Shown here one piece after another: positions 3,970 through 56,489 of a stretch of DNA of 64,000 bases (the stretch's first letter is position 1; each line of letters starts with the position of its first letter). The notes under the pieces are model-generated. The model made no database searches and had not been told where the DNA came from. It worked only from the letters and a program-made list of their open reading frames with translations. A program made the translations under genes and the position numbers. This DNA is from a virus (Duplodnaviria > Caudoviricetes): positions 28 through 64,027 of the IMG/VR virus record IMGVR_UViG_3300032281_001326. One strand, written 5' to 3'.

Positions 3970-4013
3970 TTGTTTTGTGACTAATATCTATAATTAAATT
4001 TTGATATATAAAG

Positions 4014-4469
4014 TGGAGGCGAGGGGAGTCGAACCCCTGTCTTTATTTTTTACGCTAAAAGGTCGTTACATGTTTGGGTATATTTAACATTTTAGCTATC
4101 TTACGATAACGAAGACAAAAGGCTGTTTGGTTATACTAACCGAGTTTTGTGTCTGCCTATATGTGTGATTAAAGACCACATATCGCCTCTGTGTATTTTT
4201 TTCTATGATCTCTAACAGTTCATCAAAACCTCTGCGTTTCAAAATAGTTTTAGAGGATCCACTATTAGGCTCTTAGGCTGCGAGTTCGTACTCGTCCTCA
4301 CAACCAACGAGGAACTCGTCGGCGTGATTGATGATGTACTCAGCTTCAGCTAGGAGATCAGAAGTATCGTCTTCTGCATTTAGTTTTTTAATCGATTTTT
4401 AAAGAGGCCATCGATTAACCTCTACATGCGTTTTTAGTTTCATAAATAAATCGAAACCAGTGCGCCCCC
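4014..4469 (-). ncRNA. ssrA: tmRNA (one-piece, 456 nt); tag (A)AEDDTSDLLAEAEYIINHADEFLVGCEDEYELAA*
   Basis: Acceptor stem GGGGGCG/CGCCTCC-A with G3:U70; T-arm GGGGTTCGACTCCCC; pk1 GAGG/CCTC plus TTAATCGAT/ATCGATTAA; resume codon GCA after CTAAAT; tag ORF 4273-4377 ends LAA-TAA; CCA not fully encoded. Confidence 0.96.
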
Positions 4470-42485: not shown

Positions 42486-44135
42486 CTAACTACTAATAGC
42501 AGCCGATGAATATTTATATTTTGCACTAAATTCCACGTTTTGTTCTATTTCGTCAGAAGAAAAAGAAAAAGATTCTAAATACAAATCTGTCCCAGTTCCC
42601 TTATTAGAAGAAGCCAAGGTTACACAACTCTGAAAATAATCATTACCCTTAAATGGCAAAATAGAACTAGATATTTCTAGAGATCCGGCTATTTCTCTTT
42701 CTGCTTGCTTTGATTGATTTGCTGCTTGCGCGATTGCATATTTAACCGTGCCCCCTGGTATTAAAAAATCATTATGAATTCTTGTGGCTTTAGAATCTGT
42801 AATATTTATACTTTTTCTTCTTATTGCGCTCGACATATCAAGCGTAGAATCGTCTGTATAATTATAAGAATAAGATATCAATCCCTCAAAAGGCGCATGA
42901 GTTACATTTTTATTAATCAAACTCAAGACAGACGTGGTTGGTTTTATTTTTGCATTAGTTGTATAAAAAGATTGAACCCTAGCGTTTATGCCTGCTTTTT
43001 CAGTATTCCATCCATTAAAAGCGTTATTAAATCTATCTGGAGATCCCACAATACCATCGCCTTTAACAGATCCATTTTCAACGGCGCTCCATATAAAATC
43101 CTCAGATCTAGACAAATCTAGAACGTACTCATAAGTATATAAATTTTTTCTACGCTTATCATTTGTAAAAGATATTGTATATTCTATCTCTCCACTAAAC
43201 TGGTTTCTTTTTACTGACCTTTCAATCTCTTTATTAATCAAAGGATTAACCGATCCAAACTGAGTCTGATAAGTTGTAAACGCAGTATTACAGCGAGAAA
43301 AAACGCCAGAAATCTCAGAAGAAAATCCAGATTCCGCCGAATCAAAAAGAGACAAATTCATGCATTCGCCTTTTATAGTATTTGATTCACTAACAGTAGT
43401 TATCCCATCTTCTCCAAAATTTACAGAAATAGATCTATTCCTGCTAAAACAAGAAGAATCGTTAGAATATGAAAAGTTTCTTTTGAATCCGCATGCGCCA
43501 CTTATAGAATCATAATTTTCTGAGTAAAAATCTTTTCTTAAGTTTTCAGAAGGTTTTGAATAAGTTATTTTAGATAAATTCTCGGAAAATGTTTTAGAAA
43601 AAAGAGCCGACGCTAAATTTTTTGCAAAATCAATTTTATCTCCAGAAAACAAAGTAGAAATTTTTAAATCTATAGAATGAACCCCAGAAACCGAATCTTG
43701 ATCAGAAGAGTAGTCTATAGAATAACTCTCATTAAATTCTTCTACATATTGAATGTTTGATTTAATATCATTAATAACTTGATTAGAAAAATCTAAATCT
43801 GTAAAATTAACAGAGCCAAGATTTCCATCTCCCACTATTTCTATAGAGGCGGTATACTCTGTAACCTTAACCCAGTTTCCCGAGTCAAAAGAAACATTTG
43901 TTATTTTGCCTTTACCATAATTAACATTATCAATAACTATATCTTGATAAGCACCTAAAGAGTCTGATAAATTTTTGCAAGACTGAAAAATATCCTTAAC
44001 GCCAGAAGTATTGGATAAATCAAGAATATATCCATTTATCGATATTGAAACGGTCGATCCATATCTAAAAGCTTTATCGCCCCAAAAGTTATTTTTGTGC
44101 TCGTAACTTAAAACTTTTACATTATTAAAATTCAT
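42486..44135 (-). CDS. Tail tip protein with ~5 internal repeats (distal-tail-like position)
   Basis: Immediately after the TMP; same repeat pattern as its neighbour. Confidence 0.6.
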   Translation of the reverse strand: MNFNNVKVLSYEHKNNFWGDKAFRYGSTVSISINGYILDLSNTSGVKDIFQSCKNLSDSLGAYQDIVIDNVNYGKGKITNVSFDSGNWVKVTEYTASIEIVGDGNLGSVNFTDLDFSNQVINDIKSNIQYVEEFNESYSIDYSSDQDSVSGVHSIDLKISTLFSGDKIDFAKNLASALFSKTFSENLSKITYSKPSENLRKDFYSENYDSISGACGFKRNFSYSNDSSCFSRNRSISVNFGEDGITTVSESNTIKGECMNLSLFDSAESGFSSEISGVFSRCNTAFTTYQTQFGSVNPLINKEIERSVKRNQFSGEIEYTISFTNDKRRKNLYTYEYVLDLSRSEDFIWSAVENGSVKGDGIVGSPDRFNNAFNGWNTEKAGINARVQSFYTTNAKIKPTTSVLSLINKNVTHAPFEGLISYSYNYTDDSTLDMSSAIRRKSINITDSKATRIHNDFLIPGGTVKYAIAQAANQSKQAEREIAGSLEISSSILPFKGNDYFQSCVTLASSNKGTGTDLYLESFSFSSDEIEQNVEFSAKYKYSSAAISS

Positions 44136-44141
44136 AAATTT

Positions 44142-47100
44142 TTATTTTGCAAAAGTTTTAGTTTTCGGCGGTTTTTTATTTCCGGCGGCTTGATCAGCAA
44201 TAGACGTAACTTTATCAATAAATTCTGGAGAAGACAAGAATGAAGATAGCCCCGCCTTTATTTGTTCGGCAATTGCCGTAGCTGCATCTTTTCCTTCTCC
44301 AGCTGTTGAATTTACACTAAACGATACTGGCGCGCTTACGCTTACTCCACCAGCGGAGCCAGACTGAGCAGGTTGTTGCTCCGTTGTTCCAGACGCCTTT
44401 TTTTGAAGATCAGTTGAAATTTGCTGAACTGTAGTTAGGATACTTGAAATAAGCTGAGTAGGATCCTGCTGGGCAGATTGAGCTTTAGCCTTCTCATTTT
44501 CTTGTTTTTTTGTCTGTTCTTGCTCTGCATTTTTTTGTAAATTATTTGCGCCAGTCTGGGAAGACAACTGCTGCTGAGCTTGCTTTTGTTCTTTTAACAT
44601 TTTAAGTTCTTCAGAATAAGCCGCCTTGCCGCTTTCATTTTTCCAACCCTCTCCTTGAACATACCCATGTTTGCTCATTAGAGATTTATTTTCTTCGCTT
44701 GTGATAGCGCCACCAACCGTTGAGGCGGAAGCTTGCTTGACGCCCTCTTTAATAGCTGATACCATTTGCTGGCTTTGAGATGCAGATTCCGTAATAGGCG
44801 TCTTTGAGGAAAGAGCCGGACCAATCATTTCATTTCTGGTTCTTTCGTAAGCGCCTTTTGCTCCACCCTCTTCTCCGAGAGACGCATAAACATCTTTAAA
44901 TTTATCAAAACTCGGCACAACCATTTGAGACAATAAATCTTGGAAAGCAGATTGGTTTGCGCCGCCAGCTTTAGTAACCGCTATATTTTCATAAGTATCC
45001 CCTTTGCCGCTATAAGGGCTAATCGTAGTCTCTCTACCCGAACTTCTGTCTAGAGTTTGTTTTTGCTGTTTTGTTTTTTTGAGATTTTCTGTTGCCAAAG
45101 ATTGAGCCAAAGCAGTTTCCCTAGCTTTTTTATCATTGGCATAATAATTCATAGCCTGCTGAGCAGGCATGTTTTTCATAGCTATATTCCTACTTTGAGT
45201 AGCGGCTTCTGAAGCTTTTCGTGAAGCTTCATTCTTAGCTTGAGCAATTGGTGCAAATTCATCTTGCTTTTTGCGAATTTCTTCTGACGCCTTTGAAAGA
45301 CCAGCAGCTTCAGATTTTTTACTACTAGCCTGCTGAGATGCGGCTTTCAATGCTTCAATTTTTTTTACTTTTTCTTGAAGGGCTACAGCCTCGTCGTATT
45401 TTTTTCCTAATTCTTCTGGGGTTCCTATTCCAATTCTTTCTCTTTCTAGCTCGCCTGGAGCGCCCTTTCTATTTGAATTCTCTTCAATATATTTTTTCTT
45501 ATCTATTGATGTTATTGCGGCGGCTTTATCTTTATCTTCTTTACTAACCTCCATTGATTTAATAAAATCTTCAATAGGCAAATTATTAGCATTTCCGCCT
45601 AGAGATTCAACAGTAGAATCAACTTGCGCCTGAGCGGAAACGGCACTTTTATTAGCTTCTTTTAGTTTAGCAGAATTATCCGAGTATTGCTTGTCTAGTG
45701 ACTTAGCCTCTTGATTACTTTTTTGTGCCTCAGAAGAAGCCCTGCCCTTTTCTAAAACTGCGCCTATTGCGGCGGCAATTGCATCTGGTTGTTGCGATAA
45801 CAAGTCATTTGTTTGACCTCCAATACCAGATAAAAAATTAAATCCTTCATTTAGACTTTGGGTCTGTTTATCTTGACCACCAACCAACAACAGAGTAGCG
45901 GCTGCCCCCTCGTCGGTAGTGCTTTCAAATGCCTTCTTAAGCTCTGGGCTTAAATTTGCAAACTGACCACCGCTATAAGTTTTTAAAGCTTCATCCATTA
46001 CTTGCTTTCCGCCAACGTCTGCAACTCCAAGATCTTTAAATATTTTTAACTGAGCAACCCTATCTCCCCCACCTAATGTGGCAAGAGTTTTTTCCATTCT
46101 GCTAAAAACAGCAGGATCAACAACGCCTTTTCCCGCAGCTTTTAACTGATCCATCTGTTTTCTTATCTGGTCTGAAACTGCTTGAGCAAGAGCGCCAAAA
46201 TCTTTAGATTGACTAGACATAACAGGACTTCCGGTTATTTTACTTGCAGCTCCATAAAAATCTATAACCTTACCACTCATTGCCGCATTAGCCTTTTTAT
46301 CTTTTATTCCATATGTTTCAGCTCCACCGCCCTTTACATATCCTTGTTGCAAATCTTTTTGATTATATCCCAACGTTTTAAGATCTTTCAAAGAAGAAAT
46401 AGCCTGCTGAAAGGATTCGCCTCCATTATCTGTAATTAAACCCTTTATATCTGTTCCGCCAAAACCTTGAGCTTGACGAAGTTTAGACATAGTTCTTTGA
46501 AAAACTAATTGCTGAGCTTGAATAGCAAGATCCTTTTGTGAATTTTGTTTAATTTGGTCTAATTTCTTAGAGCTATCCTGCAATGTTTGATCTAATTGCT
46601 GACCAACTTTTGTTATGGCGTCAACGCCAACCGCACTAACTTCTTCTGGTTTTAATCCAGAAAGAGCCTCGCTTGTTTTTTGTCTTGCCCCTTCATAATC
46701 TCCCTTGAGTATCATCCCCTGAATTGGCAACAATGCTTTCTGTATAGAAGACTGAACGCCAAGCAGTTGATTCTGCTGATCCATCGACTGACCCCCGACG
46801 CCAAGCTTTGCTATATCAACATCAAGACTTCCGACTAAATCATTAACGGCAGAATTAAAAACATTAGAAGCCTCAAGTTGGGACTTATAGACATCAACTG
46901 TTAAATTATCTTTTGAAGCTTGAACTATATTTTTTTCTTTTTGTGACTCCGCAGCGTTTGGAGCCCCTCCTTCAGAATAAAATTCCTGCTTGAACTCTCC
47001 TGACGCAGCTCGCATTTTTGCGGCTGTTTCAACGCTAGAAATAAATCTTTCAAGAGAATCATTGAAGCTGCCATATATAGCTTCCGTTTCAGATTGAAGC

Positions 47101-50100
47101 TGCAATAAAGAAGCATTTGCTTTTTCTCTAATCGCAATCTCTTCTTTTATTTTTGCATTGTTTATTTCTTGTGATTTTTTCCATGCTTCTTGACTTTTTT
47201 GAACATCTTCAAATGATTTAGGCTTTAACTGAATTCCTTCAACGAAAGCCTCAGAAACCGCTCCTAAATCTGTTTGCGCGGCCGCAGAAGCAAAAGAGTC
47301 AATAACCTTTTCAAAATTAGCTTTTTGATCTACAGTAAGACTCTCTGATTGAGCCAAACTTCTCATTAACGCAATAGCTTGATTTTCTGTTCCCGCGCCC
47401 TTATCTGCAAGAGTAGGAGATGCATTTTCTAAAGCTTTTTTAATGGCGTCCGCATCAAGACCCTTTGTCAAATCAGAAACTAAAGTTTTATCTATTCCAG
47501 AGATAAGTTTTTTATCAGGTCCACCAAAAGCACCCTTACTCTCACTAAATTTTTGCAAAGACAAAGCCGACTCAGAAGCTCTAACAGAATCCTGCATCTC
47601 CCCAAGGATTTTTGCGTACTCTTCCTGTCCTTTTCCTTGCGCAACTGCTGAAATAAAGGAATCTCTTTGTGCTTGAGTTAGCTTACTTAATTCTTCAGCA
47701 TAAGCTTTTTGAGTTTTAACCATTATATCGGCAGCTTGACCAGGGTTTCCAGAATTTAACGCGTCGCCGTATTGCTCATTAAGCTGTAATAGTTTTTGAC
47801 CAGATTCGCCAAATCTACTCATTGCATCAGAGCTAGTCTGAAGAGATTTCTCCATATCTGGAACCTTACTAGTGACAGCTTTTATTCCATCATGAAAAGC
47901 CTTTATTACGCCTACACCAGTGCCAATTGCCGCACCCCAAGGACCAAACATTGCTCCAGTTCCAGCAAAGCTAGCAACAGTTCCAATTCCGCTAGCGATA
48001 GCCTTTGTTCCTCTTCCCTCCTTCGTATCGTCATTTCCAGCGTACTCTCCAGCCATACCAGCCACTGCTTGTAACCCAAACCCGGCACTTAAAGCATTTT
48101 CCTTAAAGAATTTTTTAGATTTTCCTGTAAAGCTTGTTTCTTTTTTCTTAGATTCTAGCCGTCCTCTCGTAGCTTCGACATTCTCAGAAAGCGCTGCTTG
48201 TTCAGCTTTATAAGCATCAACAGATGGCTTACTAGCAGCTATTTCATTCTCAATAGATTTTATTCTCTCTTTTACTTTTTTATATAACTCGCTATTTAAT
48301 TTTTTAAGGTCCGATTCTGCGGCTTGAACTAAAACCTGCGCTCTCTGCGCACCAGAAACATCCCCTTTTTGAGCAAGTCTATCTCGCAATTCCCGCGCCT
48401 TACCAGCTTTTGATTCAAGAGCCTTTGTTTCGGATGTAGATACGTCACCATAACCAACGCCCTCCAATCTTTCCTTCCTTCTTTCTAATCTTTCAGCCTT
48501 TTTTTCAGGGTTGCTAAAATTAGAAGCAGCTTGTTTTATCTGGTTTTCTAGTTCATCTAAAGATTTTTGAAGAGAATCTATTTCCAGTTTTTCTTCCGCG
48601 TTCGGACCAAAAAAGTTTGGCACAAAACCAGACGACGCACCACCGTAAGTTTTCGGGTTGCGTCCCTCTTTCTTGGCTCTTTTAATACCCTGGATTCCAC
48701 CAAGCGGCTCGTCCCTAGTATTAGCAACCATCAACCCCATAGGGTTATTTTTATTCTTTAAAGAACTATGTTTATCAACATATATTTGACTCTTGGACAA
48801 TCCAGATGATTGCTCTCTTGCAATTGCGTCATCAAGAGCGCTTGAGAAATTGGGAACAAAACCCGAACTCAATCTTTTATTAACTACCCTAGCATTTAAA
48901 AAACCAGGTTTTCCTATTAAATCAAGATTATCGTCAACAATTTTGGAGCCACGTCTTCCAGCTTCAGCAATCTTATCTTTTGGTTTAACGCCAAAATTAA
49001 TCTTATTAACAGGAAGACCCAGTCTTGAAGAAGTTTCGCTTATTGCTTTTTCAAACATCGGCGGACGACTTGTTAATATATCAAATTTCTTTTTTCCAGC
49101 CTTTAACTTTTTGCCTATCGGAAGAAGATCTTTTTCTTTCAAAGAACCTAATTGCCTTATGTATTCATCTGCGCCGCCTCGTATTGTTGGGATAATTGTA
49201 CCATCCCAATCGTACATATTTTTTCTAACCTGATCTGCAAAACTAGGAACAAAGCCAGAGGCTTTAGAAACCGGCGATCTCCACCACTTTAACGCAGACT
49301 CTCCCTTTGGAGTTTTTACATATTTAGAAAGCTTATCAAAATCATCTTTCGCAAAACCAGCAGACTCAAATTGAGGCTTAACATAATTCCAGTCTCCCAT
49401 TTTTAATGCATCTATAGCAAAAGATCTTCCAAAACCAAAACCAATAGCTTTTGATAAGTTTAATACCTTATCTTTTCCACGCAAAGGAAATCCCATCTGA
49501 GGTAAGAACGCTTCCAATCCAGCAACATCTATTCCAAGCTTACTCGCGGCTTTCATGTAAGCAGAATCATTTAAGCCAGCTCCCTCTTTTAACTTTTGGG
49601 CAACATTTGGATTTTTAATTCTTTTATTTATAGCTTCTATTAACTCTGGAGAAGCGAAGTTGGGCACAAACCCCCCTGATAATATTTTTTTTGTTTTATA
49701 TTCAGACTTATCTTTAAATATTCTAGAAACAGAAGCTCCTGGATATTCAGACACAAACCCTCTAGCTCCTTTTACAAAAGATGAAACCCCACCACTTCCA
49801 GAAGTAAATTGTTTTCTATCAGGAATTATAGAATCTCCTTCTTTTGCCCTTTTTTCGCGCAAAGACTTTATAGTATTTCTAGAGCCAACTAATAAATCTA
49901 AAGCGCCGCTTTCGCCAGATTTACGAAATATCTTTTTTAAATTTTCTGAAACTATTTCGTCTTTTGGCATAGACATTGTAGCCCTGTCAAGAATATAACT
50001 ATCAAATCTCGCTAAATCGTTAAATGACTTAACAATAGATCCGCCACTTTTCGAAGCCATTGTTGTTTTTCCGGAGCCAGATGGACCAATAATCGTTCTA

Positions 50101-53100
50101 ACGGGCTTATTCGTCTTTGCAAGAAAATCTAAAACGCTTTTGTATTCATTTCCTTTAATGACGTCTCCAGTTATTATTCCGCTTGCAAAATTAGGAACAA
50201 AGCCAGAAGAATGTTGAGTTTGCAAATCGACTCCAAGACCGCCGTATTCGCCAGCTTCTATATTACCAAAATAGCTTTGTAATTTTTTTGGATCTTTTTT
50301 TAATTCTGAAATTTTTGCATTAACAAATGACGTAAACTGATCACGCGTCATTTTTTCCGCTTCTAAACCCTTATGCCCATAAACCTCGAAAACAGAACTC
50401 TTAGCAAGATCGGCCCTCTTTATTTGCGGATATAATGTTTCAGCAGAAACGGGTTCGCCTTTTTTTATTTTTTCTAATAAGCGATTCATTTGAGGCAGCA
50501 GCTGCCCCTTCATTTTTTTACCTACGCTTCTTTTTATAGCCTCTTTGTACAATTCGCCAGAAATGCCTCTTCCTCTATATGCCTTATTTACAGATATATC
50601 ACCGATGTCAATCGTTCCATCTTTTCGAGTTGAAGTTTCAAATCCTCCAACTTTCTTGCCTCCCATAATCGCATTAAGAGAGCTAATTCCAAATTCGTCC
50701 TCTTTGGTCTGAGAAAATGATAATTTTGATTTCGCAAAATTAGGAACAAATCCAGAAGCTATTCCATTTGGAAAAAGGCTTTCTAAATTAACAAACTGAT
50801 CGTTATCTTTTTCAGGATCCAAACCAAAAGAACGCATGGTCTTGTCAAGGTCCTTAACATGTTTTTCCGTATAATAATCTATGCCAAGCCTAGGATACAT
50901 TAGGGCTTTATAAGCACTAGACCCCACGCTGTTCCTATTTAAATGCGCTTTAAGAGTGCTTGGTCTAAAAGATCCAGTTATTGGCACTCTTGGTAAAAGA
51001 GGATTTTTTCTTCTAATATTCTCAATTAACTTTGAAGAATCCAAAAGCAGCTTTGGGACGTTAGGACCAACAATCATTCCAGCTTCTATTTTTTTAATTG
51101 CGCCACTCATAAATAAACGAAGCAGATCCCTCATTGGGTTACCTCTGCTAGAGCTTAAATAGTTTATTTTTAGTGTTCCATCGTTGTCTAGCAAAGCATC
51201 CGAGCCTGTCCTTTGTGACACTTCCTTAGCAAAATTAGGAACAAATCCTGAAGATAGTCCTTTTACAGCAATATATTTAGAAAGAGAGCTTGATCTATTT
51301 TGAGGAGTATCAGTTATTTTCGCTTCATAGCTTCCAGTTGCACCATGGAAAAATGATCTTAATCTTTCCGAAGGATTCGGAAAGTCAATTCTATCTCCTT
51401 GACCTTGTGCCGGAACATTAAAAGCTCCTCTAACAGCAGATTCGAAAACTGTACCAGCAGCACTAAAAACAGAACCAGTATTGGCCAGCTGTTTATAATT
51501 AGAAAATTTTGAACCACTCCCAGGGTTAAAGGTTTCTGATAAATTATTAGCCTCAGTAACAAGTGCATCACCAACCCTATCTTGAATGCTACCGCCCCTT
51601 AATTGTTTACCATTTAATCCAGCTGTACCAATACTAGCCAGATATCTAGTTTTCTGACCAGTTTTTTTATCTTCTTTCGTGTAATCAGCTATTTTTTTAG
51701 AATATCCTTCAGCGCCAGCATGAATCATGGTATAATCTTCAAGTTTGCCCAAATCTTTAACTGGAACATTGCCTCCGGAAGTAGCCTTCTGATTTGCGAA
51801 ACCAGCTCTACCAGCTAATGTAGAATCACCACCACCTACTCTCTCTCTGTACAAAGCCTTTAATGCAGCTGGTTTAAAAGACTGTATATCGTATTCTTTT
51901 TTAAATTGCACCGGATCATTAATAGCATAAAACTTATCCATTACCATCTGCGTCATTCTGTCAGATGCTTTAGCTGATGCAAAATTAGGAATAAAGCCAG
52001 AAGCCATTGCGGATTTATTTCCATATGAATCCATTTTGGAAACATAATTATTCATTTTCTCGGTGCCCAAGCCTTTTGCAACCCTATAAGAATAACTTTC
52101 ATCCACAGCCTTTTTTGCTCTTTTCTGGACGACGGAAGATTGTTTCGGATTATCTGCCTGAACTAAAAGCCCCCTAATAGAAAAATTATCTCTACCAATG
52201 GTCCATTTGTCTAACTGATTATTTTCTCCATAATTTTCAGGCGCAGCCCTTAGCATTTTGGTATAAACATCACTTTGACTATAACCGCCAGCCTTTACTT
52301 CTAGAAAATCAAAAACACTACCTCCAGATCTTACTCCGTCTATAGAGGAGTTACCCTTATTATATAATTTAGCCTGAATATTGCTGTCATACCCATATTG
52401 TTTAATTATACGAGACTCATATTGAGCCTCAGACTCACCGGGCTTAATTGCCTCATATTGGGTAAAAAGTTTTCCACCGACCAGCGATACGTTATCTTTT
52501 CTATTTAACCTTGGTAATGATTTGTTTTTTTTCGCATCTTCTTCTGATTTTTTTAATTTAAAACCTATAGATCTAAATTTATCCAATGATCCAATATTTA
52601 CAAAATTAGGAACAAATCCACCAGCAGCATATTGAGTATTTTCACCAAACCCATTGGGCGGACGAACTACTGTAGCTTTCTTACCAGCGGAATTAGTAAA
52701 GGTTTTTACATCCTCTTTACTATTAACAAAAGATTTGAAAGATTTACCATTGCCGTCATGAATAGTTGTTTTTTTAGCTTTTCCAGCTTTGTAACCATGC
52801 TGTCTAGCCCCAGAATTTTCCATCGCCTGACCAATGGCTTGGTCCGATGCAAAGTTTGGTATAAAACCAGAAGACGCGGCTTTTTTACCTTTTGCTGCCG
52901 CAACCATTGGTACGCCGCTTGCGCCTACGCTAACGCCAACCTTGGACAAGTTAGCCCCTATTACTTTACTTAATCTTTCTTGCTCTCTTAAAATATTTGA
53001 TTGAGCAGTTAAATAATCAAGCATTTGCTTTTCAGCCTGAACGGTAGTTATTTTACCACTTAAAATCTGATTAGTAAATTGGTTATTCTTTTGAAGTATA

Positions 53101-54503
53101 GATAAAATACTTTGCTCTATTGCGGCTTGCTGTTGCGCGGCTTTATTTGTTCCTAATAATTCCTTTGCTGATCCGGCGGCAAATTTAGCTAACGTAGCAA
53201 ATAATTTTACAAGAACCGCAGTCGCTAAAACAGCACCTGGTCCAGATATGAAATCGCCAACCCCTTTAAAAAAGCCAGTCATTAGCTTCCCGCCAGCACT
53301 TTCCGCATCTATATTATTAAAAGAATCTAATAAATTATTGAAGCCAGAAAGAAAACCTTTTGCATTAGGTTCAAAAACAATAGAGCCAATTTTGCTTGCC
53401 GCCTGCTGCAATCCAGAAACGGCTTGACTAGATAACGCAGAAATAGTTTGATTTAAAAGTTCGTTTCTTCTAATAGCTTGATCAGTTGAACTTAATGAAG
53501 TATCTAAAGCTCTTCCAAAAATACTATATTCTTTACCTAAATCAGACAAAGCCGCTTTTAAAATGTTGATTTGGAAAACGCCGCCGACCTGCTCCGCAAC
53601 GTAAGATTTTTGAGTAGCGCCAAGAGTGTCATAAGTTGCCGCAAGCTGTTGTAATAAACTTATCGCGCTTTGCCCTTCTGTTGTATCAACCCCAAGAGAG
53701 CCAAGTAAATCTTGAACCTTTCCTCTTTGTAAACGTGTAAAAATAGTTTTAAAAGAGTTGCCGATAACCGCGCCGCCACGAGCCGTAGTTTGTTGAGCAG
53801 AAGTAACTAAAGCAATTAATTCATCTAAGGATACTCCAGCATCAACGGCAGTAGAACCAACGCGGCTAATAGCATTGGCAAGGTCAGCAGAGCTAACTGC
53901 AAAAGCGGCGTCAACGTTTGCTAATTTATTAACTACCTCTACTGCATCAAGCGCAGATCCAGCAAAAGAGTTTAATGTAGCAGTCAACGCATCAACGCTA
54001 GACTTCGCATCAAGTCCGCTGAGCCTAGTCAAAACTAGTGCGGCGTTTGTTCTTTTTAATGTTTCCTCAACCCCAAGACCTTGACGAGAAAGCTCAGTAG
54101 CTGCGTCGGCAACCGTAGAAAAAGATTGAGCCGTATTTTTAGCTATATCGAATAAACTAGCTCCAAATTTTTGCAAACCAGAAGAAGACAAACCGAGAAG
54201 AATATTTACATCTGTAAGTTTTTTCTGTACTTCTACGGTAGAGGATATTAAGCTTGAAAAAGCTTTTTCGACGGCAAAAATAGCCCCAGCAGACGCCCCG
54301 AAAGCAACGACGCGAGCATTAGACGCCTCCAAGCTTTTATTAAATTCAGAAACTTGCCCAGTTATTCTGCCAAGAGCCTGTGAACTTTTCTTTGTATTTA
54401 TCTCAGAAAATTCAACAGTTTTAAGGGCTTTGAGAATATCCTTCTCCATGCCTCTTGTATTTGCTCTTACATCAATTGTTGCCGTAGTCAAATTATCAGC
54501 CAT
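44142..54503 (-). CDS. Tail tape measure protein (3453 aa) carrying an internal array of enzyme-like modules
   Basis: TP901-type TMP core at aa ~80-330, long A/Q/K/S-rich coiled coils, G/A-rich hydrophobic segments (~47890-48100), canonical position after tube and chaperone genes. Confidence 0.93.
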   Translation of the reverse strand: MADNLTTATIDVRANTRGMEKDILKALKTVEFSEINTKKSSQALGRITGQVSEFNKSLEASNARVVAFGASAGAIFAVEKAFSSLISSTVEVQKKLTDVNILLGLSSSGLQKFGASLFDIAKNTAQSFSTVADAATELSRQGLGVEETLKRTNAALVLTRLSGLDAKSSVDALTATLNSFAGSALDAVEVVNKLANVDAAFAVSSADLANAISRVGSTAVDAGVSLDELIALVTSAQQTTARGGAVIGNSFKTIFTRLQRGKVQDLLGSLGVDTTEGQSAISLLQQLAATYDTLGATQKSYVAEQVGGVFQINILKAALSDLGKEYSIFGRALDTSLSSTDQAIRRNELLNQTISALSSQAVSGLQQAASKIGSIVFEPNAKGFLSGFNNLLDSFNNIDAESAGGKLMTGFFKGVGDFISGPGAVLATAVLVKLFATLAKFAAGSAKELLGTNKAAQQQAAIEQSILSILQKNNQFTNQILSGKITTVQAEKQMLDYLTAQSNILREQERLSKVIGANLSKVGVSVGASGVPMVAAAKGKKAASSGFIPNFASDQAIGQAMENSGARQHGYKAGKAKKTTIHDGNGKSFKSFVNSKEDVKTFTNSAGKKATVVRPPNGFGENTQYAAGGFVPNFVNIGSLDKFRSIGFKLKKSEEDAKKNKSLPRLNRKDNVSLVGGKLFTQYEAIKPGESEAQYESRIIKQYGYDSNIQAKLYNKGNSSIDGVRSGGSVFDFLEVKAGGYSQSDVYTKMLRAAPENYGENNQLDKWTIGRDNFSIRGLLVQADNPKQSSVVQKRAKKAVDESYSYRVAKGLGTEKMNNYVSKMDSYGNKSAMASGFIPNFASAKASDRMTQMVMDKFYAINDPVQFKKEYDIQSFKPAALKALYRERVGGGDSTLAGRAGFANQKATSGGNVPVKDLGKLEDYTMIHAGAEGYSKKIADYTKEDKKTGQKTRYLASIGTAGLNGKQLRGGSIQDRVGDALVTEANNLSETFNPGSGSKFSNYKQLANTGSVFSAAGTVFESAVRGAFNVPAQGQGDRIDFPNPSERLRSFFHGATGSYEAKITDTPQNRSSSLSKYIAVKGLSSGFVPNFAKEVSQRTGSDALLDNDGTLKINYLSSSRGNPMRDLLRLFMSGAIKKIEAGMIVGPNVPKLLLDSSKLIENIRRKNPLLPRVPITGSFRPSTLKAHLNRNSVGSSAYKALMYPRLGIDYYTEKHVKDLDKTMRSFGLDPEKDNDQFVNLESLFPNGIASGFVPNFAKSKLSFSQTKEDEFGISSLNAIMGGKKVGGFETSTRKDGTIDIGDISVNKAYRGRGISGELYKEAIKRSVGKKMKGQLLPQMNRLLEKIKKGEPVSAETLYPQIKRADLAKSSVFEVYGHKGLEAEKMTRDQFTSFVNAKISELKKDPKKLQSYFGNIEAGEYGGLGVDLQTQHSSGFVPNFASGIITGDVIKGNEYKSVLDFLAKTNKPVRTIIGPSGSGKTTMASKSGGSIVKSFNDLARFDSYILDRATMSMPKDEIVSENLKKIFRKSGESGALDLLVGSRNTIKSLREKRAKEGDSIIPDRKQFTSGSGGVSSFVKGARGFVSEYPGASVSRIFKDKSEYKTKKILSGGFVPNFASPELIEAINKRIKNPNVAQKLKEGAGLNDSAYMKAASKLGIDVAGLEAFLPQMGFPLRGKDKVLNLSKAIGFGFGRSFAIDALKMGDWNYVKPQFESAGFAKDDFDKLSKYVKTPKGESALKWWRSPVSKASGFVPSFADQVRKNMYDWDGTIIPTIRGGADEYIRQLGSLKEKDLLPIGKKLKAGKKKFDILTSRPPMFEKAISETSSRLGLPVNKINFGVKPKDKIAEAGRRGSKIVDDNLDLIGKPGFLNARVVNKRLSSGFVPNFSSALDDAIAREQSSGLSKSQIYVDKHSSLKNKNNPMGLMVANTRDEPLGGIQGIKRAKKEGRNPKTYGGASSGFVPNFFGPNAEEKLEIDSLQKSLDELENQIKQAASNFSNPEKKAERLERRKERLEGVGYGDVSTSETKALESKAGKARELRDRLAQKGDVSGAQRAQVLVQAAESDLKKLNSELYKKVKERIKSIENEIAASKPSVDAYKAEQAALSENVEATRGRLESKKKETSFTGKSKKFFKENALSAGFGLQAVAGMAGEYAGNDDTKEGRGTKAIASGIGTVASFAGTGAMFGPWGAAIGTGVGVIKAFHDGIKAVTSKVPDMEKSLQTSSDAMSRFGESGQKLLQLNEQYGDALNSGNPGQAADIMVKTQKAYAEELSKLTQAQRDSFISAVAQGKGQEEYAKILGEMQDSVRASESALSLQKFSESKGAFGGPDKKLISGIDKTLVSDLTKGLDADAIKKALENASPTLADKGAGTENQAIALMRSLAQSESLTVDQKANFEKVIDSFASAAAQTDLGAVSEAFVEGIQLKPKSFEDVQKSQEAWKKSQEINNAKIKEEIAIREKANASLLQLQSETEAIYGSFNDSLERFISSVETAAKMRAASGEFKQEFYSEGGAPNAAESQKEKNIVQASKDNLTVDVYKSQLEASNVFNSAVNDLVGSLDVDIAKLGVGGQSMDQQNQLLGVQSSIQKALLPIQGMILKGDYEGARQKTSEALSGLKPEEVSAVGVDAITKVGQQLDQTLQDSSKKLDQIKQNSQKDLAIQAQQLVFQRTMSKLRQAQGFGGTDIKGLITDNGGESFQQAISSLKDLKTLGYNQKDLQQGYVKGGGAETYGIKDKKANAAMSGKVIDFYGAASKITGSPVMSSQSKDFGALAQAVSDQIRKQMDQLKAAGKGVVDPAVFSRMEKTLATLGGGDRVAQLKIFKDLGVADVGGKQVMDEALKTYSGGQFANLSPELKKAFESTTDEGAAATLLLVGGQDKQTQSLNEGFNFLSGIGGQTNDLLSQQPDAIAAAIGAVLEKGRASSEAQKSNQEAKSLDKQYSDNSAKLKEANKSAVSAQAQVDSTVESLGGNANNLPIEDFIKSMEVSKEDKDKAAAITSIDKKKYIEENSNRKGAPGELERERIGIGTPEELGKKYDEAVALQEKVKKIEALKAASQQASSKKSEAAGLSKASEEIRKKQDEFAPIAQAKNEASRKASEAATQSRNIAMKNMPAQQAMNYYANDKKARETALAQSLATENLKKTKQQKQTLDRSSGRETTISPYSGKGDTYENIAVTKAGGANQSAFQDLLSQMVVPSFDKFKDVYASLGEEGGAKGAYERTRNEMIGPALSSKTPITESASQSQQMVSAIKEGVKQASASTVGGAITSEENKSLMSKHGYVQGEGWKNESGKAAYSEELKMLKEQKQAQQQLSSQTGANNLQKNAEQEQTKKQENEKAKAQSAQQDPTQLISSILTTVQQISTDLQKKASGTTEQQPAQSGSAGGVSVSAPVSFSVNSTAGEGKDAATAIAEQIKAGLSSFLSSPEFIDKVTSIADQAAGNKKPPKTKTFAK
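48864..49238 (-). other. TMP module: HAD-family phosphatase
   Basis: YDWDGT (motif I), ILTSR (II), K (III), VDDN (IV). Confidence 0.75.
49674..50186 (-). other. TMP module: P-loop kinase/NTPase
   Basis: TIIGPSGSGKTT, YILDR. Confidence 0.8.
50205..50735 (-). other. TMP module: GNAT acetyltransferase
   Basis: Motif A IGDISVNKAYRGRGISGELYKEAI. Confidence 0.8.
51249..51980 (-). other. TMP module: PD-(D/E)XK nuclease-like domain B
   Basis: GTVFESAV...RIDF...YEAKI. Confidence 0.55.
51999..52601 (-). other. TMP module: PD-(D/E)XK nuclease-like domain A
   Basis: EAQYE...SIDGV...FLEVKAG. Confidence 0.6.
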
Positions 54504-54571: not shown

Positions 54572-55615
54572 TTATTTTAACTTATCAGTTTTTTTAATTA
54601 TCTGATTTATAGGCATTTCTCCTCCAGATTCTTCAGCGGCAGATAAAAGATCTGAACTACCAGAAGCTACGCCGCCAACTCCAAGTTTTTTATAATCCGA
54701 AGAACTAGCTCCAACAATAGAACTTATTCTACCGCTACGCTCCCCCTTTGTTTTATTTTTGTTAGGAGTTCTTTCCATCATGCTCTTTGCTTTCATAGAA
54801 GAAGAATTTCCTCCTTCGCACCAATCTATCAAGACGGACGGATCACTAAGTATATAATCTGGAATTTGTTCAGTTGCGTTATTTATAGACCTTCTAAAAC
54901 TTGCTGCATAGGAAAACAAATCAATTTGATTAATAGTTAAAGACGGAATAGGCTTCCCATAAAAATCTATTATCGACATTTCTTTACCAGTTAAAATTAA
55001 TAAATTCTGAAAAAAACCAGTCGCCGCCACGTATTTTACATTTTCTAATTTAAGAAAATTAATAACATTAAAAACACTATTCCATATGTCGTTATATATT
55101 TCGTCTTCTATTTCTATGAAATAATCTTCATTATTACCAAAGTAAACAGAAAACTCCTTGTCTTTAAATAAAGAATAATATAAGTAATACCTATTATAAT
55201 ACTTGTCAGCGTATTCTTCTGCGGTTATTGGAATAATACTTTTCTTTTCAGAAAGAATTATATCAAGCTTTCCCTGCTCTTCTTTTATAGTTTGAGAAAC
55301 CTGCTCTTTCTGGGACGGCAACATTAATTTTTCCCTACTCTTTTTTAAATTTTCAATAAATGCAGTAAGAGTTCTTATCTCATCCTCTTTGGACTGAGAC
55401 CACCACTTCTTTTCTATATAAAAATCTATATAATCTTTCTCTGTCTTTATACCATTAGACTGAGCAATAGAAATACCTTCTTTATATTTATCCTTTAAGG
55501 CGTGCCTATCAATATAGGTGTGATGTTTTAAAAAGCACTCTTCGCCGTTAATAAATATTCTTTCATAACCAGCGCAAACCTTAACATAAAGCTTTTGTAT
55601 ATCATCAAGTTCCAT
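54572..55615 (-). CDS. Putative tail assembly chaperone
   Basis: Helical protein directly upstream of the TMP; call is positional. Confidence 0.5.
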   Translation of the reverse strand: MELDDIQKLYVKVCAGYERIFINGEECFLKHHTYIDRHALKDKYKEGISIAQSNGIKTEKDYIDFYIEKKWWSQSKEDEIRTLTAFIENLKKSREKLMLPSQKEQVSQTIKEEQGKLDIILSEKKSIIPITAEEYADKYYNRYYLYYSLFKDKEFSVYFGNNEDYFIEIEDEIYNDIWNSVFNVINFLKLENVKYVAATGFFQNLLILTGKEMSIIDFYGKPIPSLTINQIDLFSYAASFRRSINNATEQIPDYILSDPSVLIDWCEGGNSSSMKAKSMMERTPNKNKTKGERSGRISSIVGASSSDYKKLGVGGVASGSSDLLSAAEESGGEMPINQIIKKTDKLK

Positions 55616-55655: not shown

Positions 55656-56489
55656 CTACTTATCTGCTACTACAGATACAGATTGATTAATCTCTTCAGT
55701 TTCTTTAAAATCAACTTCAGCAACCGTCTCATTTTCTTTTTCACCTCTGCTCTTATCTTCTAACGAATTATCATCCGGTTTTAAAAGAGACTCATCCTCT
55801 TGAATTCTTTTCAGGTATTCCTCGTCTAAAGATTTAAAATCTTCAAAAGAAGATGCGCTACCAAGATACCAAACAGTAACTAAATAATTTATTCTAGAAA
55901 AGCAATCGGTAAGAAATTTATCATTTTCAATAATAGAGTCATAAATATCAAGCCTATCTTCAATTTGTCCGCTACCAAGTAACAACTCTACAATGCCTTT
56001 ATTCTCTTCGGCAGCTAAATTAGCTGCCCACCAAACAATAGTGCGATTTCTTGCCTTTGCTTCTGCCGTATTCTCAAATGCATTAACCTGAGCCATCTCC
56101 ATTTCTTGCATTCTTTTTCTAACCCTGATTAATTGACCCTCAAAAAATTCAATTTGATTTTTTTCATCTTCCGTTCTTTCCTTTTCAGACTTAACAGATA
56201 GATTATCTACAGAGTTTCTAAACTCAGAAAACTCAACAAAAAGATCAGAATACTCCTTTTGGTCTACTTCAGAAATTATACCGCCGTTGTCTTTAAAGAT
56301 CTTGTCCCAAACTATTTTGGGCAAAACCCCAGCAGAAATAAACTGAGAAAGTTTAGAAGCATAAAAAAGCTCGCCATTTTCTTTCATTTTTCTAGTCGGC
56401 TTTAAAATGCAAAATTTTCTTTTAACTGAAGCCGCGTCAGTAGCCTCAAATGAGTATAAATATTTTTCTTGTTGTTTATTGTTATCCAT
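55656..56489 (-). CDS. Putative tail assembly chaperone
   Basis: Acidic helical protein between tube and TMP; call is positional. Confidence 0.5.
   Translation of the reverse strand: MDNNKQQEKYLYSFEATDAASVKRKFCILKPTRKMKENGELFYASKLSQFISAGVLPKIVWDKIFKDNGGIISEVDQKEYSDLFVEFSEFRNSVDNLSVKSEKERTEDEKNQIEFFEGQLIRVRKRMQEMEMAQVNAFENTAEAKARNRTIVWWAANLAAEENKGIVELLLGSGQIEDRLDIYDSIIENDKFLTDCFSRINYLVTVWYLGSASSFEDFKSLDEEYLKRIQEDESLLKPDDNSLEDKSRGEKENETVAEVDFKETEEINQSVSVVADK

Follow-up and report, generated by a model that had tools for sequence, protein, structure and literature searches.

A phage tape measure protein carrying an array of exchangeable modules bounded by a repeated junction peptide

In polymorphic toxins, pre-toxin junction motifs such as VENN in CdiA and PxxxxDPxGL in Rhs are the points at which variable enzymatic cassettes are swapped on conserved carriers, and these systems have a single C-terminal toxin, an adjacent immunity gene, and orphan cassettes. 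Phage tape measure proteins (TMPs) can bear enzymes too, as in mycobacteriophage TM4, whose TMP has an Rpf-like motif of the embedded peptidoglycan-hydrolase type. The TMP of phage T5, pb2, has an embedded peptidase and is cut after R1127, between its hydrophobic stretch and its enzyme domain, and neither piece leaves the tail (PMC10038345). Both T5 pb2 and lambda gpH are cleaved as the tail matures, and the tail retains their fragments (Linares et al. 2023, PMC10038345; PMC12617516); where gpH is cut, and by which protease, is still unknown (PMC12617516). In Thermus phage P23-45, the TMP gp96 is fused to a virion RNA polymerase, which has been shown experimentally to transcribe pre-early genes (Chaban et al. 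2024, PMC10770324). Polyvalent proteins, which combine unrelated conflict-type enzyme domains (nuclease, GNAT, and kinase/phosphatase types) in one polypeptide and have been proposed to enter with the DNA, usually carry a peptidase domain (Iyer et al. 2017, PMC5512222). Here, we describe a TMP encoded in a 64,000-nucleotide (nt) stretch of DNA from an uncultured aquatic phage (IMG/VR virus record IMGVR_UViG_3300032281_001326, positions 28 to 64,027; Caudoviricetes), which we call the window, in which a repeated junction peptide bounds an array of modules that are exchanged among related phages. The completeness of the record was 43% by CheckV estimate. The TMP gene (P0001; window 44142..54503) is a single open reading frame (ORF) of 3453 amino acids (aa); all coordinates below are those of the window, and all features lie on its minus strand.

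The motif GF[VI]P[NS]F occurs ten times in this TMP, with its glycine at aa 546, 629, 836, 1086, 1251, 1434, 1611, 1750, 1881, and 1959, and it bounds nine segments (S1 to S9) with spacings between motifs of 83, 207, 250, 165, 183, 177, 139, 131, and 78 aa. The interval 48612-52868 takes in all ten motifs, with the last base of motif 10 at its low end and the first base of motif 1 at its high end. Two copies read GFIPNF (motif 1, aa 546-551, 52851..52868; motif 3, aa 836-841, 51981..51998), one reads GFVPSF (motif 8, aa 1750-1755, 49239..49256), and the others read GFVPNF (motif 2, aa 629-634, 52602..52619; motif 4, aa 1086-1091, 51231..51248; motif 5, aa 1251-1256, 50736..50753; motif 6, aa 1434-1439, 50187..50204; motif 7, aa 1611-1616, 49656..49673; motif 9, aa 1881-1886, 48846..48863; motif 10, aa 1959-1964, 48612..48629). 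The motif was absent from all 2000 shuffles of the TMP sequence, and a looser pattern had no occurrence outside the TMP ORF in the six frames of the window. A preliminary description of this DNA had listed ten motifs with these positions and spacings, and its list was exact.

Whole modules are gained, lost, reordered, and replaced among related phages exactly at the junction peptide. When the window was compared with the locus L084, the DNA was 99% identical until 1 nt past motif 2 (gene nt 1903); the whole S2 module was replaced, and homology picked up again 9 nt ahead of motif 3, at 97% identity. The homology block in common with the locus L085 begins exactly at motif 3. Of the 75 homology-block ends in the cassette across 11 relatives, 66 lay no more than 20 nt from a motif and 58 no more than 10 nt; random placement of block ends put 9.6 within 20 nt on average and 21 at most. 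The motif had been read from the outset as a module boundary, and these exchange points confirm that reading. Since the genes of ~347 and 549 aa that flank the TMP gene are conserved in 8 of 8 relatives, it is the cassette that varies and not the phage backbone. Moreover, the modules tested are under strong purifying selection, with ratios of nonsynonymous to synonymous substitution (dN/dS) of 0.04-0.22 in the seven that had a comparator at a suitable distance (S1, S3, and S5-S9).

The junction peptide itself, of ~10 residues, is highly conserved. In an alignment of 36 TMPs, the glycine and proline of motif 1 are invariant, and 850 distinct contexts gave the junction logo [A/K/L]-[S/A]-[S/G/K]-G(100%)-[F77/Y19]-[I49/V47]-P(100%)-N(97%)-F(93%)-[A66]. 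In the predicted models of S2 and S3, the flanking motifs had predicted local distance difference test (pLDDT) values below 50 and paired neither with each other nor with the domain, which argues that the junction peptide belongs to a linker, as a short linear motif outside any fold.

When the cassette was used as the query of a word-indexed search, 78 other giant TMPs were recovered, and a word search among shorter proteins found 38 further TMPs or fragments; among these shorter proteins there were only TMP fragments and no free-standing module homologues. No orphan cassette was found, and the sole candidate, P0172, was rejected as a truncated TMP fragment on an 806-nt contig. The motif is borne by 117 related proteins. 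At least 567 metagenome loci, from lakes and oceans, encode a TMP relative, and the motif was present in most of the 80 loci retrieved from the metagenome scan. Nearly all full-length members carry G[FY][IV]PNF 2-15 times, and the metagenomic relatives that do so number more than 190. In cultured-phage records, tblastn gave no match to the cassette, and only the N-terminal core was matched, at 24-27% identity. Pfam searches with two of the largest relatives returned the TMP core and otherwise only weak below-threshold matches, one of them to GNAT.

TMP length within the family ranges from about 1100 to 4800 aa. The commonest layout is a motif, a bookend of ~82 aa, a motif, one module of 250-290 aa, a motif, a bookend of ~75 aa, and a motif, and this three-segment layout is presumably the basal state of the family; in the clade of the window, the middle is enlarged to 5-11 modules. 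Clustering of motif-bounded segments gave 85 module families in 79 proteins, and 100 once metagenome loci were added. The module order in the window is M02-M12-M03-M32-M04-M07-M08-M10-M01, and relatives vary in module content, number, and order; for example, M07 precedes M03 in four of them. The slot after the first bookend (slot 2) is filled by 13 different module families; a loose D...ExK regular expression run over these was too permissive and was not used as evidence. The comparison across relatives that the preliminary description had called for therefore shows differing sets and orders rather than one invariant insert. In the closest relative, P0002 (L084:6117-6920), there are two copies of the C-side bookend, and an extra module of 107 aa lies between them; modules can thus be added by duplicating a bookend together with its motif.

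Active-site signatures of enzymes are recognizable at the sequence level in at least four modules, namely PD-(D/E)XK, GNAT, P-loop nucleoside triphosphatase (NTPase), and HAD-like. S2 (aa 635-835, 51999..52601) occupies the most polymorphic slot. Its residues E68, D94, and E107-x-K109 are invariant, with classical spacing, in nine sequences of 29-54% identity. An AlphaFold2 (AF2) model built from this 9-sequence alignment had a pLDDT of 70.7 and a predicted template modeling score (pTM) of 0.69, and the order of its secondary structure elements agrees with the alpha-beta-beta-beta-alpha-beta core. Among the 50 VIA matches listed and the top Foldseek matches, the hits were weak and mostly to PD-(D/E)XK nucleases, with best scores of E 6e-3 in Foldseek and Z 4.5 in VIA (root-mean-square deviation 4.4 Å, 85 aligned residues). 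These weak matches comprised cap-snatching endonucleases, Hjc, the VRR-nuc domain of FAN1, NucS, FokI, BglII, Cas4, Can2, and a CdiA-CT toxin; a PDB profile search with S2 was empty. The assignment of S2 as a PD-(D/E)XK nuclease-like domain is thus supported.

S3 (aa 842-1085, 51249..51980) is the universal middle module of the TMP family and falls in the same superfamily as the middle modules of the basal three-segment TMPs, with hhalign probabilities of 97%, 94%, and 86% between sub-clusters. Residues G182, F185, E186, D205, F217, [ED]225-x-K227, and K241 are invariant in 37 sequences, and the AF2 model from this 37-sequence alignment had a mean pLDDT of 81. Searches of PDB profiles, Foldseek PDB, VIA wide, BFVD, VIA second look, and Atlas gave nothing usable, and the fold searches gave no nuclease match, with core Z values of 3 at most. 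The preliminary description had proposed two PD-(D/E)XK modules; S2 bears this out through its invariant residues and weak fold matches, but S3 has only the pattern E...D...[ED]xK and was empty in four fold searches. The same description had viewed the segments as independently folding units, and the two that were modeled, S3 (pLDDT 81) and S2 (pLDDT 71), agree with that view. In a TMP fragment on a short metagenome contig (L096:25-702), the middle module runs into a stop codon before its [ED]-x-K motif, which may reflect an assembly error or a broken gene.

S4 (aa 1092-1250, 50754..51230), which like S7 is unassigned, has a conserved AG-x-I-x-GP-x-x-P ... R ... P signature in distant relatives. 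We considered whether it is a divergent paralogue of the GNAT module S5, since a BLAST comparison with the motifs included gave E 8e-6, and rejected this because hhalign without the motifs gave a probability of 0.5%. Modules of the S4 type (AG-x-I-x-GPRIP) stand in tandem, with the junction motif between copies, in P0131 and P0134. S5 (aa 1257-1433, 50205..50735) matched the acetyltransferase family PF00583 at E 5.2e-5 (23.9 bits vs a cutoff of 20.7), and over the R-G-x-G acetyl-CoA loop its profile matched a solved GNAT structure (1y9k, E 4.7e-4). R60, G61, and G63 are invariant, only ~56 residues of the GNAT fold are matched, and dN/dS is 0.07-0.14. These matches support a GNAT core in S5, as had been predicted.

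S6 (aa 1440-1610, 49674..50186) is a predicted P-loop NTPase with an invariant Walker A motif (G-x-x-G-x-GK-T) and invariant R116 and R119. Its PDB and Pfam matches were to generic P-loop proteins, with E 0.09 for the kinase domain of polynucleotide kinase-phosphatase and 0.15 for cytidylate kinase. The P-loop expected for this segment is therefore present and invariant, but the term kinase is motif-based, the PDB profile search having given nothing specific, and S6 is possibly a kinase. S7 (aa 1617-1749, 49257..49655) is highly conserved in 5 relatives (dN/dS 0.07-0.15), and Pfam, PHROGs, and Atlas gave no usable lead for it. S8 (aa 1756-1880, 48864..49238) carries the four HAD motifs, and D16-W-D18-G-T20, T62...R-P, K95, and D108(D) are invariant in TMP copies and in homologues outside TMPs. 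It had no Pfam match and no PDB profile match with two alignments. Of the HAD phosphatase proposed for this segment, all four motifs were found but no profile match was obtained, and we call S8 HAD-like from its motif patterns alone. S6 and S8 could form an end-healing pair like T4 polynucleotide kinase-phosphatase, with their motifs the sole sequence support.

The two end segments differ from the inner ones. S1 (aa 552-628, 52620..52850), on the N-side of the cassette, is present in nearly all family members, with conserved N55, E58, and PP columns and dN/dS of 0.05-0.10, and has no match in Pfam or PHROG. S9 (aa 1887-1958, 48630..48845), on the C-side, is present in 67 of 79 full-length relatives; E1897 and G1939 are invariant in 36 TMPs, and dN/dS is 0.04-0.08. 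Both are conserved bookends and not variable cargo; they enclose seven autonomous domains, and the array as a whole sits between the TP901-type core and the helical, hydrophobic C-terminal part. S1 and S9 clustered together only when the motifs were included and fell into separate clusters without them; their hhalign probability was 97%, but over 29 columns that are mostly motif. A common V-x-N-x-x-E/D strand was seen in a misalignment and is a hint only.

In an exhaustive HMMER search covering 1.84 billion representatives, only 78 proteins were related to the seven inner modules. About 20 of these are motif-less proteins that are not TMPs, and they were found for S8 alone. They match S8 at E 1e-13 to 1e-6 and are multidomain proteins; most of the larger ones scanned bear InPase (PF18823), and single ones also bear DUF192, an SNF2 helicase, a LigD_N 3'-phosphoesterase, a 2H/Acb1-like domain, or R2K. 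InPase is listed as specific to phage-type polyvalent proteins, and by its domain content this company is the polyvalent-protein repertoire (Iyer et al. 2017, PMC5512222). The kinship with polyvalent proteins that had been suggested for the array as a whole can accordingly be upheld for S8, through its homologues in InPase-bearing proteins.

How, then, does the array compare with the systems described above? Like polyvalent proteins, the TMP joins unrelated conflict-type enzyme domains in one polypeptide. Here, however, the TMP itself is the carrier (the term tape measure has 0 occurrences in PMC5512222), we detected no metallopeptidase (MPTase) domain for processing in the TMP, and its modules are separated by one repeated junction peptide of a kind undescribed in PMC5512222. 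P23-45 gp96 is similar in being a giant TMP with an enzyme that acts in the cytoplasm, which is experimental for gp96 and a prediction for the TMP of the window; it differs in that its one enzyme is fixed and N-terminal and in lacking a repeated junction motif, and the part of the gp96 report available to us describes no cassette exchange. Polymorphic toxins resemble the TMP in that a short conserved peptide marks the swap point of variable cassettes, but the TMP modules are internal, number up to eleven, and lie in one ORF without intervening genes, and immunity genes are not evident. Finally, hydrolase-bearing TMPs also hold an enzyme activity within the TMP that is used at entry, but those enzymes act on the cell wall, whereas the modules of the window would need cytoplasmic cofactors or nucleic-acid substrates and form a shuffled array.

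Overall, we lean towards the reading that this TMP also carries a changeable set of pre-made proteins. The tail would then probably bring ready-made enzymes into the host; both this delivery and cleavage at the motif are steps that we infer. The modules would travel in the tail with the TMP, enter the host before the DNA, and be active in its cytoplasm from the onset of infection, as is proposed for the domains of polyvalent proteins. Cytoplasmic action is the most likely, because TMPs leave the tail before the DNA and because acetyl-CoA and ATP are required by GNAT and P-loop enzymes, respectively; P23-45 gp96 is the precedent. The likeliest role of the junction peptide is as a site at which the chain is processed into separate pieces, either in tail maturation or after ejection, and it would also be the only in-frame joint where recombinants stay functional. 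We put forward the cutting of the junction peptide tentatively, with somewhat less than even confidence. In T5 pb2 (L094), the residues are N-S-F-V-P-R before the cut and A-E-G-G after it, and F1124-V-P, directly before the cut, is the sole [FY][VI]P in the 1219 aa of the protein, where 0.09 would be expected by composition. The T5 cut, which separates the enzyme domain, thus follows S-F-V-P-R, a sequence that resembles the S-G-F-V-P-N-F of the TMP in the window; this likeness is suggestive. T5 and lambda TMPs differ in having a single cut, compared with up to ten candidate sites here. A bolder version, in which the junction peptide is a maturation cleavage site equivalent to the T5 pb2 and lambda gpH cuts and the TMP is a polyprotein that, after tail length has been set, yields up to nine separate, freely exchangeable effectors, which are stored single-file in the lumen of the tail and shot into the cytoplasm before the DNA, is rather unlikely in our judgment.

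Several points weigh against delivery of a processed set of enzymes. The presence of the modules in virions, which is very likely given that they are part of the TMP, their ejection, and their cutting are what we infer from the sequences. At three or six copies, folded domains of 15-28 kDa would fit only tightly into a tail-tube lumen of ~4 nm. The likeness to T5 spans only three to four residues and was spotted post hoc, and the bookends, when considered as homologues of the C-terminal 'GE-x-V' region of lambda gpH and T5 pb2, had an hhalign probability of 0.1%, so that this homology is unsupported. No peptidase family was detected in any TMP segment (E ≤ 1), in two larger relatives, or among the ten nearest neighbor genes of the TMP, although a peptidase domain could be hidden in an unassigned module. 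Three of the seven inner modules, the universal module S3 among them, have no assigned activity, and the kinase (S6) and HAD (S8) calls come from motifs alone.

In an alternative model, the modules are cargo but the motif is an uncut docking element; the lumen would hold ordered or partly unfolded domains, and the enzymes would act while tethered to an envelope-spanning TMP. We regard this as unlikely, if a serious contender. The motif is disordered alone, as short linear binding motifs are, and it is hydrophobic and aromatic with an invariant Gly-Pro-Asn; the lack of a protease among the ten nearest neighbors would be expected, and the P23-45 polymerase is part of its TMP, with no mention of release by cleavage in the available part of that report. 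All nine modules are also basic, with net charges of +5 to +13, which would suit an acidic tube lumen. Nonetheless, the spacing of the motifs is irregular, at 78-250 aa, unlike the regular rise of tube rings; docking leaves unexplained why the motif stands at every boundary and never within a module; and the T5 TMP is cut beside a similar tripeptide. A different possibility is that the motif persists chiefly for recombination: its coding DNA would provide microhomology for exchange between co-infecting phages, as pre-toxin motifs such as VENN in CdiA do for polymorphic toxins, and the peptide would be just a tolerated linker. Homology blocks do end at the motif, up to 20 identical nt are found between some copies, and the motif codons are biased to one DNA version (ATT 86% vs 48% elsewhere, CCT 66% vs 39%, and GTT 72% vs 61%), which fits with repeated recombination through the joint, although the 12 genes counted are related, so that the counts lack independence. 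The DNA of the ten copies in the window differs, however, with a longest shared run of median 8 nt and maximum 20 and most codons differing synonymously somewhere, whereas G, P, N, and F are fixed over 850 contexts in TMPs with cores only 25-60% identical. Residues that stay fixed while codons vary point to selection on the peptide, and we consider it improbable that recombination is the main reason for the motif.

Less probable still is that the modules serve as structural filler, setting tail length or plugging the lumen, with no host-directed role and with enzyme-like motifs that are relics. TMP length, which is generally known to set tail length, does vary from about 1100 to 4800 aa in this family, and three modules have no recognizable activity. 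But every module tested is under purifying selection, the active-site residues of S2, S5, S6, and S8 are invariant across divergent copies, the S8 domain is common to non-structural polyvalent proteins, and a relic would not be swapped as an intact unit between near-identical phages.

Searches of papers and preprints, including a jumbo-phage review, found no description of such module arrays, and the only match to the motif strings in that literature was an unrelated human serum proteomics paper. As far as can be told, a junction-bounded TMP module array is unpublished, while enzyme-bearing TMPs and polyvalent proteins are known kinds. If the carriage of pre-made proteins is true, phage tails would deliver, along with the DNA, a customizable kit of ready-made enzymes that is rewired by cassette swaps at one fixed joint, and the polyvalent-protein idea would extend to the tape measure. 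It would also provide a natural rule for building TMP-cargo fusions and, for work on TMP cutting, as many as ten copies of a candidate site; how this cutting works is unknown for lambda and T5, and the FVP tripeptide beside the T5 cut may bear on this unsolved question. Should the polyprotein version hold, the array would represent a plug-in protein-delivery system common to thousands of aquatic siphophages. The ~85-100 module families, most without a Pfam match, are candidate early takeover or counter-defense proteins of abundant freshwater and marine phages.

Outside the cassette, the TMP is of the TP901 class, with a match to PF10145 at E 1.7e-24 and matches to PHROG TMP families at E values as low as 1e-42. 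Its TP901-type core spans the first 545 aa and contains the PhageMin_Tail domain (aa 121-308, 53580..54143; PF10145, 87.3 bits vs a cutoff of 33.2), with numerous invariant columns in the alignment of 36 TMPs. The cassette is flanked on both sides by a hydrophobic stretch: upstream, a transmembrane-like one (aa 414-446, 53166..53264) with a Kyte-Doolittle peak of 1.84 over 19 residues, and downstream, a Gly-rich one found by hydropathy scan (aa 2168-2187, 47943..48002). The C-terminal 1489 aa are helix-favoring, with 47% A/Q/E/K/L. There is no cysteine anywhere in the 3453-aa protein. The G+C content is 38-40% in the TMP gene (window 44001-54000) and 31-35% across most of the remaining window, a difference that could reflect either an Ala/Gly-rich composition or a different history.

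The neighboring genes gave few database matches. The upstream neighbor (347 aa, 54572..55615) has a counterpart of 345-352 aa upstream of the TMP in 8 relatives, and the downstream neighbor (549 aa, 42486..44135) has a counterpart of 543-560 aa downstream of it in 8 relatives; neither matched Pfam or PHROG, and nor did a further flanking gene at 55656-56489. Because the 347- and 549-aa genes are kept beside the TMP in 8 relatives, they are candidate chaperones or partners of the motif. A weak tail-tube match, to PF18906 at E 0.0038 and below the cutoff, lies upstream of the TMP. Elsewhere in the window, at 4013-4469, ARAGORN predicted a tmRNA-like gene of 457 nt whose tag peptide ends in ...YELAA.

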